In this document: one piece after another, positions 8,666 through 9,651 of the stretch | How positions within the stretch are numbered: the stretch's first letter is position 1 | Layout: every line of letters starts with the position of its first letter | Virus genome (UHGV): UHGV-0172325 | Length of the DNA: 12,537 nucleotides | Source of the DNA: a virus | Reading direction: 5' to 3' (one strand) | The notes under the pieces: generated by a model | Databases searched by the model: none | Seen by the model: the letters and a program-made list of their open reading frames with translations, nothing else | What the model was told of the DNA's origin: nothing | Translations under genes and position numbers: made by a program

Positions 8666-9325
8666 TTAACCAAACGTCTCTTCAGGCCACTGGCTGGCGA
8701 TAACTTTCCCCACAACGGAACAACTCTCATTGCATGGGATCATTGGGTACTGTGGGTTTAGTGGTTGTAAAAACACCTGACCGCTATCCCTGATCAGTTT
8801 CTTGAAGGTAAATTCATCACCACCAAGTCTGGCTATGCAGAAATCGCCGGGCTCAACAGCTTGCTCAGGGTCAACCAGAATTAACATCCCGTCAGGAAAA
8901 CTAGGTTTGGAACCTGTTGGTGCGGTCATTGAGTTACCTTCAACCTCAAGCCAGAATGCAGAGTCACTGGCTTTTTTGGTTGTGCTTACCAATCTCTCCG
9001 CATCACCTTTGGTAAAGGTTCTGAGTTCTGGAGAGAACATCCCAGCCTGAACATGAGAAAAAACAGGGTACTCATATTGTTTTTTAACTGGGGCCGATGA
9101 GTATTCGCCAACAGGTGAAAATGTCCCGTCGTGGTTGAATGATATGTTATCAATACCAAGGTATTTAAACACCACACCAATATCACTAAGAGATGGATGA
9201 CGAGATCCGCGCAACCAGTGTCCAATTCCACCCTGCGTCATACCTAGCTCTTCGGCTAACTTCTCTTGAGTTATGCCGAGCTCTTTCATTCTGGATCTAG
9301 CCAGTTCATACCATTTCATTTTCAT
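8666..9325 (-). CDS. cI: CI-type prophage repressor (HTH plus S24 LexA-like autopeptidase)
   Basis: N-terminal helix-turn-helix ([20 protein letters not shown]); Ala-Gly cleavage site candidate in HVQAGMF; S24 catalytic motifs GNSM and FTFKKL. Divergent from cro. Start at 9325 or 9319 (MKMKW); the upstream Met at 9367 would run into the operator region. Confidence 0.85.
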
Positions 9326-9435
9326 GTCCTTATTATTACGCTCTGTACTGGAACCATCCATGCACAATGTGTATTTTTACTTGTATTTGAGAAGTACATA
9401 TTGTATTTTTTATTCGTGGTTACTATGGAGGGCAT
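9326..9435. promoter_or_regulatory. OR-type operator/promoter region (divergent pRM and pR); pR candidate -35 TTGTAT (9381-9386), -10 TATTTT (9404-9409)
   Basis: Intergenic region between divergent cI and cro. Contains the 19-bp palindrome-like TACTTGTATTTGAGAAGTA (9378-9396) and the 11-mer GAAGTACATAT (9391-9401) shared with the pL spacer. cro SD GGAGG at 9427-9431. Confidence 0.5.
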
Positions 9436-9651
9436 ATGAGCAACCTACGAAAATATCGAGAGTCACTGAATATCTCTCAAACAACACTTGCTAAGGCAGT
9501 TGGATGCACACAGGGAGCTATCGGACATTGGGAATCTGGTCGTCGCTTCCCAGACCTTAAAACATGCCGTGCTCTTGTTGCGTGTCTAAACAAGTTAGGC
9601 GCAAAAGTAAGTCTTGATGACGTGTTCCCGCCGGAGCACAAAGCCGCTTAA
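9436..9651 (+). CDS. cro: Cro-like HTH regulator (71 aa)
   Basis: Small HTH protein (ISQTTLAKAVGCTQGAIGHW) divergently transcribed from cI, with a strong SD (GGAGG). Confidence 0.75.
   Translation: MSNLRKYRESLNISQTTLAKAVGCTQGAIGHWESGRRFPDLKTCRALVACLNKLGAKVSLDDVFPPEHKAA

Follow-up and report, generated by a model that had tools for sequence, protein, structure and literature searches.

The regions most similar to the immunity module analysed here belong to Stx-converting phages. The public records AP000422 and AP005153 already mark the cI and cro genes, six 17-bp "putative operators" (three in OR and three in OL) and the promoters PRM, PR and PL. Fattah et al. (2000), as cited in PMC10742460, compared the immunity region with lambda and reported high similarity between the C-terminal parts of CI and low similarity between the N-terminal parts. 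In PMC10742460 itself, the repressor tested on the VT2-Sakai operators was lambda CI only. Among Stx-phage CI proteins, a survey distinguishes a 'Clade I' that is 61% identical to lambda CI (bioRxiv 10.1101/2021.11.24.469858). Mitomycin C induces Sp5 strongly: its DNA is selectively amplified, early genes are transcribed and particles are released in very large numbers (PMC2669165). In the account of the Cordes group (PMC6649833), a duplicated cI DNA-binding domain has displaced cro in 434, and P22 retains a true Cro orthologue. HK97 itself has lambda-type immunity, and its cI and Cro are a few residues off those of lambda. No binding or cleavage experiment on the cI or Cro described below was found in the literature searched.

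The window, a stretch of 12,537 nucleotides from the virus genome UHGV-0172325, carries a cI product identical to the Morioka Stx1 phage repressor and one residue (S211G) from VT2-Sakai (Sp5) cI (218/219). Its Cro is the same as VT2-Sakai Cro (71/71). The two proteins are 99.5-100% identical to those of VT2-Sakai, 1717, Nil2, 2851 and the Morioka Stx1/Stx2-II phages, and across the cI N-terminal domain, OR and cro, DNA identity with VT2-Sakai, Stx2 phage 1717, Nil2, 2851, YYZ-2008 and others amounts to 99.5-100%. Positions 8666-10100 are 98.7-99.6% identical to the DNA of many Stx-converting phages, and the OL region is 98% identical to the VT2-Sakai type. VT2-Sakai and its relatives have in common with the window cI (218-219 of 219 residues), Cro (71/71), both operator clusters and cII (98.7-100% at the DNA level), and the window differs from VT2-Sakai in having HK97 gp48/gp49-like genes between cI and OL. 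The interval 8200-9700 has matches of at least 99% identity in 369 complete E. coli genome records, a count that overstates this immunity type because the query is partly lambda- and HK97-like. Judged by its sequence, the module is to be equated with the already known, annotated VT2-Sakai lysogeny switch, and its cI probably belongs to 'Clade I' of the Stx-phage CI proteins. We assign a probability of roughly 0.88 to the reading that it works as a bistable switch on the pattern of lambda and has VT2-Sakai (Sp5)-type immunity, for which we infer binding, operator order, PRM activation and cleavage kinetics. The VT2-Sakai annotation gains nothing from the window. There is a modest gain from the relatives, which supply a phylogenetic footprint for the annotated operators and carry the helix identity well beyond E. 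coli, and a further modest gain from the case for 434 as the right analogue and from the cassette 9077-9660, delimited via HK97.

The ORF list and a domain scan characterise the window as a lambdoid prophage early region. The minus strand encodes ssb (4345-4860), erf (4861-5568) and an N-like antiterminator (about 6631-6900). The OL cluster (7094-7168) lies between the N-like gene and the HK97 gp48-/gp49-like genes of unknown function (7336-7986 and 7974-8381, minus strand; phrog_5820 and phrog_26809), followed by a 51-aa membrane ORF (8433-8588, minus strand). To the right of cro are cII (9793-10089, plus strand) and, beyond it, genes for an O-like initiator and then a DnaB-like helicase, the replication arrangement of HK97 and several Stx2 phages. 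There are no stx genes within the window. The cII-box annotated in VT2-Sakai (TTGC-N6-TTGC) corresponds to 9802-9815 with one mismatch; matches to this pattern are no commoner than chance. The gp48-/gp49-like genes and the 51-aa ORF sit downstream of cI, where lambda has rexAB. None of the three has a Pfam match above the curated cut-offs, and a PADLOC scan of the genes between cI and OL identified no credible defence system. It is possible that the three are exclusion genes expressed in the lysogen.

DNA comparison with HK97 delimits the exchanged segments. Positions 7179-9076, covering gp48, gp49 and the cI C-terminal domain, are 98.3% identical to HK97, and positions 9661-12492, covering cII, O and the helicase, are 97.8% identical. 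Between 7179 and 12492 the sole stretch unmatched in HK97 is 9077-9660, an immunity-specificity cassette composed of the cI N-terminal domain, OR and cro. The OL/N region (about 6159-7178) is likewise non-HK97, and both swapped parts are about 98% identical to VT2-Sakai-type phages. One breakpoint falls in the cI linker at 9076/9077, where similarity to both lambda and HK97 ends abruptly. The window shares a backbone with lambda-immune HK97 at 98%, whereas its cI N-terminal domain, OR, cro and OL/N are of the VT2-Sakai type, and in effect it can be described as a natural "HK97 imm(VT2-Sa)" hybrid. The exchange is coherent, taking in the repressor DNA-binding domain, Cro and both operator clusters. 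Since 12.5 kb only is visible and many lambdoid E. coli prophages are defective (PMC2669165), the module might instead be the silent remnant of a defective prophage whose switch no longer works. This is improbable, because the ORFs for cI, cro, cII, N and the O-like and DnaB-like proteins are all intact and the six operators are identical or nearly so to those of functional phages.

The cI gene (8666-9325, minus strand) encodes a 219-aa repressor from ATG 9325. The domain search proposed in the preliminary description recovered an N-terminal HTH_3 and a C-terminal Peptidase_S24 domain in cI, as well as HTH_3 in Cro (Pfam). Peptidase_S24 scored 99.7 bits (cut-off 23.3) with the whole profile covered (1-116), and HTH_3 scored 41 bits (cut-off 23). 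The HTH, the S24 domain, an Ala-Gly bond and a Ser/Lys dyad, sequence features of LexA/lambda cI-type repressors, are all present in the protein. Alignment with the lambda repressor structure 3bdn runs from residue 10 on. The N-terminal domain is a distant relative of that of lambda cI, with 32% identity over 44 aa; it is 18 residues shorter and has no N-terminal arm.

The cI ORF as listed reaches TTG 9367, but OR3 and the PRM -10 fall within that extension, so that cI almost certainly starts at ATG 9325 (219 aa) or ATG 9319 (217 aa). Homologues of cI begin M-x-x-x-W and the ATG 9325 product begins MKMKW, which favours ATG 9325, as does the promoter geometry. Starts given in public records disagree: ATG 9361 (MDGSS...) in AP005153 and ATG 9319 (VT2-Sakai) in AP000422. 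Longer forms of cI would put OR3 and PRM into coding sequence. AP005153 also lists a hypothetical protein of 81 aa (ORF b65) that is read within cI in a different frame (8986-9231, minus strand) and is probably a spurious call.

The cleavage-site region and C-terminal domain of cI are of lambda type (8670-9076, minus strand; 94.6% DNA identity to lambda), and DNA identity to lambda collapses abruptly at 9077. Within this segment 22 nucleotide substitutions produce one amino acid change (Trp to Leu, DAER[W/L]VST), a ratio that points to purifying selection acting strongly on the C-terminal domain in phages of different immunity. The encoded region is identical to lambda cI at 135 of 136 residues, the Ala-Gly, Ser and Lys included, and the linker segment of 18 residues around the Ala-Gly bond is identical. 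Alignment places the predicted self-cleavage bond at Ala94-Gly95 (codons 9041-9046; lambda Ala111-Gly112), the predicted nucleophile at Ser132 within GNSM (8930-8932; lambda Ser149) and the predicted general base at Lys175 (8801-8803; lambda Lys192), all on the minus strand. The catalytic Lys is the first K of FKKL, the residue altered in the PDB K192A variant 8gmu. Translation confirmed that HVQAGMF, GNSM and FKKL, the motifs from which the preliminary description had expected SOS induction, all lie in the minus-strand ORF ending at 8666. The near-complete match to lambda together with the mitomycin C response of Sp5 (PMC2669165) argues strongly for RecA-stimulated cleavage of this cI, and the expectation of SOS induction is well supported on the same grounds. 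Induction could in principle depend chiefly on an antirepressor or on some other route without RecA, with inefficient cI self-cleavage, as some Stx and Gifsy-type prophages use antirepressors (PMC3121763 and PMC3064807). Such a route is very unlikely for this phage: its cleavage-site region and catalytic domain are nearly those of lambda cI, the model case of cleavage stimulated by RecA, the ORF list and domain scan revealed no antirepressor gene in the window, and Sp5 does respond to mitomycin C.

The recognition helices of the two regulators are nearly the same. That of cI is TQGGIGHW (residues 30-37; 9215-9238, minus strand), placed by translation, Pfam and BLASTP, and that of Cro is TQGAIGHW (residues 25-32; 9508-9531, plus strand), with conservation above 90% among Cro family members. 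Seven of the eight residues are identical, and the shared TQG(G/A)IGHW core claimed earlier is indeed present in both proteins, in Cro as part of VGCTQGAIGHW in the 9436-9651 ORF. The Cro family (71 aa, 51-82% identical) is spread across Enterobacterales with T/S-Q-G-A-I-G-H-W/Y almost invariant. Loci of relatives were obtained from a scan of one genome per species and number six, from an Enterobacteriaceae species, Erwinia, Rahnella, Pantoea, Thorsellia and Avibacterium. In all six a cI-type gene lies divergent and upstream of cro and carries the shared helix, which is TQGAIGHW in five and TQGGVGHW in one (L006); identity between the cI and Cro helices is 8/8 in those five (L007-L011). Across the loci recovered, the recognition helix was invariant (TQGAIGHW/Y), leaving no variation to set against the operators. 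The C-terminal domains of the relatives' cI proteins do not resemble that of lambda; the DNA-binding module is thus found joined to different S24 domains. The similarity of the cI and Cro helices is more than chance, given the BLASTP match of the cI N-terminal domain to Cro (35% over 62 aa, E = 9e-13).

The helix likeness could instead reflect no more than generic HTH_3 ancestry, with Cro and cI binding different DNA. HTH_3 is a very large family, and an exhaustive Cro-family profile search matched 30,029 representatives at E <= 0.001; the best 150 of these matches were mostly multi-HTH repeat proteins with summed scores. Identity at seven of eight helix residues here, and at all eight in the five relatives above, is nevertheless far above generic HTH_3 conservation. 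Cro also matches the N-terminal domain family of its partner at E values of 1e-12 to 7e-15, compared with 2.7e-6 for the P22 domain and no match for the 434 and lambda domains, and the intergenic region contains one conserved family of palindromic sites only. Common ancestry without a common DNA target is thus very unlikely.

The earlier suggestion that the pair behaves "as in P22 c2/Cro rather than lambda" was examined with Pfam, structure prediction and BLASTP. Cro (9436-9651, plus strand; 71 aa) is preceded by a Shine-Dalgarno sequence, GGAGGG, at 9427-9432. In control Pfam scans 434 Cro was assigned to HTH_3, P22 Cro to P22_Cro and lambda Cro to Cro (PF09048). The Cro of the window scored 46.4 bits with HTH_3, close to the 50.2 bits of 434 Cro (cut-off 23), and 15.9 bits with P22_Cro (PF14549), below the cut-off of 30.2 and compared with 97.9 bits for P22 Cro itself. 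It had no match to the lambda Cro family PF09048 at E <= 1. Its AlphaFold2 model (pLDDT 90.7; predicted, not solved) is all-alpha, with the five helices of a repressor fold and without strands. Among the 50 matches listed by Foldseek, the best PDB match of the model was 28tn (50% identity, TM 0.85-0.92); the P22 c2 N-terminal domain matched with TM 0.74-0.79, other leading matches were CylR2, C.AhdI and the 434 repressor, and lambda Cro was absent. Entry 28tn (released 2026-03-11) is an E. coli 'lambda repressor-like protein', 50% identical over 66-69 residues with the helix TAGAICHY, and is the closest solved relative of Cro among the 50 matches listed.

Comparison of each repressor N-terminal domain with its own Cro by BLASTP separated the model systems. 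The cI domain of the window matched its Cro with 35% identity over 62 aa (E = 9e-13), and the six relatives gave 35-47% identity (E about 1e-12 to 1e-13). The 434 pair matched with 52% identity over 63 aa (2e-21). The P22 pair matched with 37% identity over 30 aa, the HTH motif only (2.6e-6), and the lambda pair gave no match. The Cro of the window thus combines an HTH_3 score above threshold, whole-domain similarity to its cognate cI and a predicted five-helix fold, the attributes of a 434-type Cro. Because of the whole-domain cI resemblance, the HTH_3 assignment and the sub-threshold P22_Cro score, phage 434 rather than P22 is the closer analogue of this cI/Cro pair. Of the earlier suggestion, the contrast with lambda stands on both predicted fold and Pfam family; P22 is the weaker comparison, given the 30-aa HTH match and the P22_Cro score.

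The pair resembles that of 434 in its HTH_3 Cro with a predicted repressor fold, the whole-domain likeness to its own cI and the near-identical helix. It is unlike 434 in its lower cI/Cro similarity (35% versus 52%) and in its operators, which are 17 bp with an A[G/A]TAC half-site; a BLASTP comparison with the 434 repressor N-terminal domain gave no match. With P22 it shares an all-helical Cro and an HTH motif partly common to the repressor, but P22 Cro belongs to the P22_Cro family and matches c2 over 30 aa only. With lambda it shares gene order, three-plus-three operators, the cleavage site and S24 domain (135/136) and a probably leaderless cI, but the operators differ and lambda Cro has another fold (alpha+beta) and family (PF09048).

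Three 17-bp sites lie between cI and cro. OR3 (TATTACGCTCTGTACTG, 9334-9350), a putative operator in AP005153 and AP000422 that is conserved in 8 loci, overlaps the PRM -10. OR2 (ATGCACAATGTGTATTT, 9360-9376), placed by annotation and conservation, abuts the PRM -35 (9355-9360). OR1 (AAGTACATATTGTATTT, 9392-9408), in which both half-sites fit the consensus, overlaps the PR spacer and -10. The left cluster comprises OL1 (TAGTACGATATGTACTT, 7094-7110), an annotated palindrome that matches the consensus perfectly, and OL2 (CAATACAATTTGTTCTA, 7119-7135) and OL3 (TACAACGCTTTGTATTT, 7152-7168), both supported by annotation and motif. The 17-bp operator consensus is A[G/A]TAC-N5-GTA[C/T]T. The putative PRM -10 is AATAAT on the minus strand (9332-9337). 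Putative PR, annotated in AP005153 and AP000422, has its -35 TTGTAT at 9381-9386, a 17-nt spacer and its -10 TATTTT at 9404-9409 (plus strand). A consensus promoter scan reported neither PR nor PRM and gave one irrelevant match inside cro; the promoter assignments come from public annotation and conservation.

All eight intergenic regions compared have three 17-bp palindromic sites at conserved positions: TATTAC-N5-GTA[C/T]T at OR3, xxxAC-N5-GTA[C/T]T at OR2, where the left half-site is degenerate in every locus, and [A/T/G]TAC-N5-GTA[C/T]T at OR1. The invariant alignment columns are essentially the half-site cores, promoter elements and start codons, and the spacers diverge; at PR, the TT of the -35 and GTA.T.T of the -10 are invariant. 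Within the window, motif matches of at least 9/10 numbered 5 against 1.46 expected, with four of the five in OL or OR and perfect matches at OL1 and OR1 only, a statistic that is partly circular because the motif was built from the sites that it scores. The plain pattern TAC-N5-GTA occurred 3 times in the window against 1.21 expected and was not significant (25 of 200 shuffles reached 3). The cross-genus footprint is independent evidence for the operators. The preliminary description had held that both proteins read the same half-sites, and this view is supported by the helix kept in cI and Cro of six genera and by the three conserved 17-bp sites: cI and Cro probably read the same operators. 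With the same helix in both proteins over at least six genera, differences in operator preference would have to be encoded outside this helix, as in 434.

Centre-to-centre spacing within OR is conserved over the window and L004-L011 and is unequal, 25-26 bp for OR3-OR2 and 32-34 bp for OR2-OR1. The OL spacings are 25 bp (OL1-OL2) and 33 bp (OL2-OL3). The close operator pair is promoter-distal at OR and promoter-proximal at OL. These spacings differ from those of lambda, and lambda-like cooperativity between OR1 and OR2 is for that reason not assured. Exactly 6 nt, which are not conserved, separate the PRM -10 from ATG 9325. The same distance is found in L004 and L006-L010, and most loci with this PRM geometry have no Shine-Dalgarno sequence before cI. 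The short distance and the general lack of a Shine-Dalgarno sequence suggest that the cI mRNA made from PRM is leaderless, as in lambda.

In the proposed switch, cI dimers in a lysogen would occupy the 17-bp OR1-3 and OL1-3 operators and repress PR and PL. Bound at OR2, cI probably activates PRM, which is plausible because OR2 abuts the PRM -35; at OR3 it probably represses PRM. DNA damage would activate RecA and lead to cutting of the Ala94-Gly95 bond by Ser132 and Lys175. Once cut, the repressor would lose the link between its DNA-binding and its lambda-type oligomerisation domain, and PR and PL would fire. Cro, a paralogue of the cI N-terminal domain, would next take the same operators and shut off PRM. 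Because the switch decides whether common Stx2 phages are induced, and with that whether toxin is released, its mechanism is medically relevant.

In its C-terminal domain, which makes the dimer and tetramer contacts, this cI agrees with lambda and HK97 cI at 135/136 residues, and its DNA-binding domain is heterologous, so in polylysogens it could conceivably dimerise or oligomerise with repressors of lambda immunity. We regard this proposal as speculative and rather doubtful. [quoted passage not shown] (2000) ascribed to helix similarity (as cited in PMC10742460).

Near copies of the module also occur under unexpected taxonomic labels. JAJXBQ010000280.1 (a 'Segatella copri' MAG), JAEZIN010000021.1 (a 'Bacillota bacterium' MAG; L004 above) and an entry labelled 'Blautia wexlerae' (P0017) contain sequences 98-100% identical to this cI/cro module of an E. 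coli phage. The 'Segatella', 'Bacillota' and 'Blautia' labels most likely reflect binning or assembly contamination.
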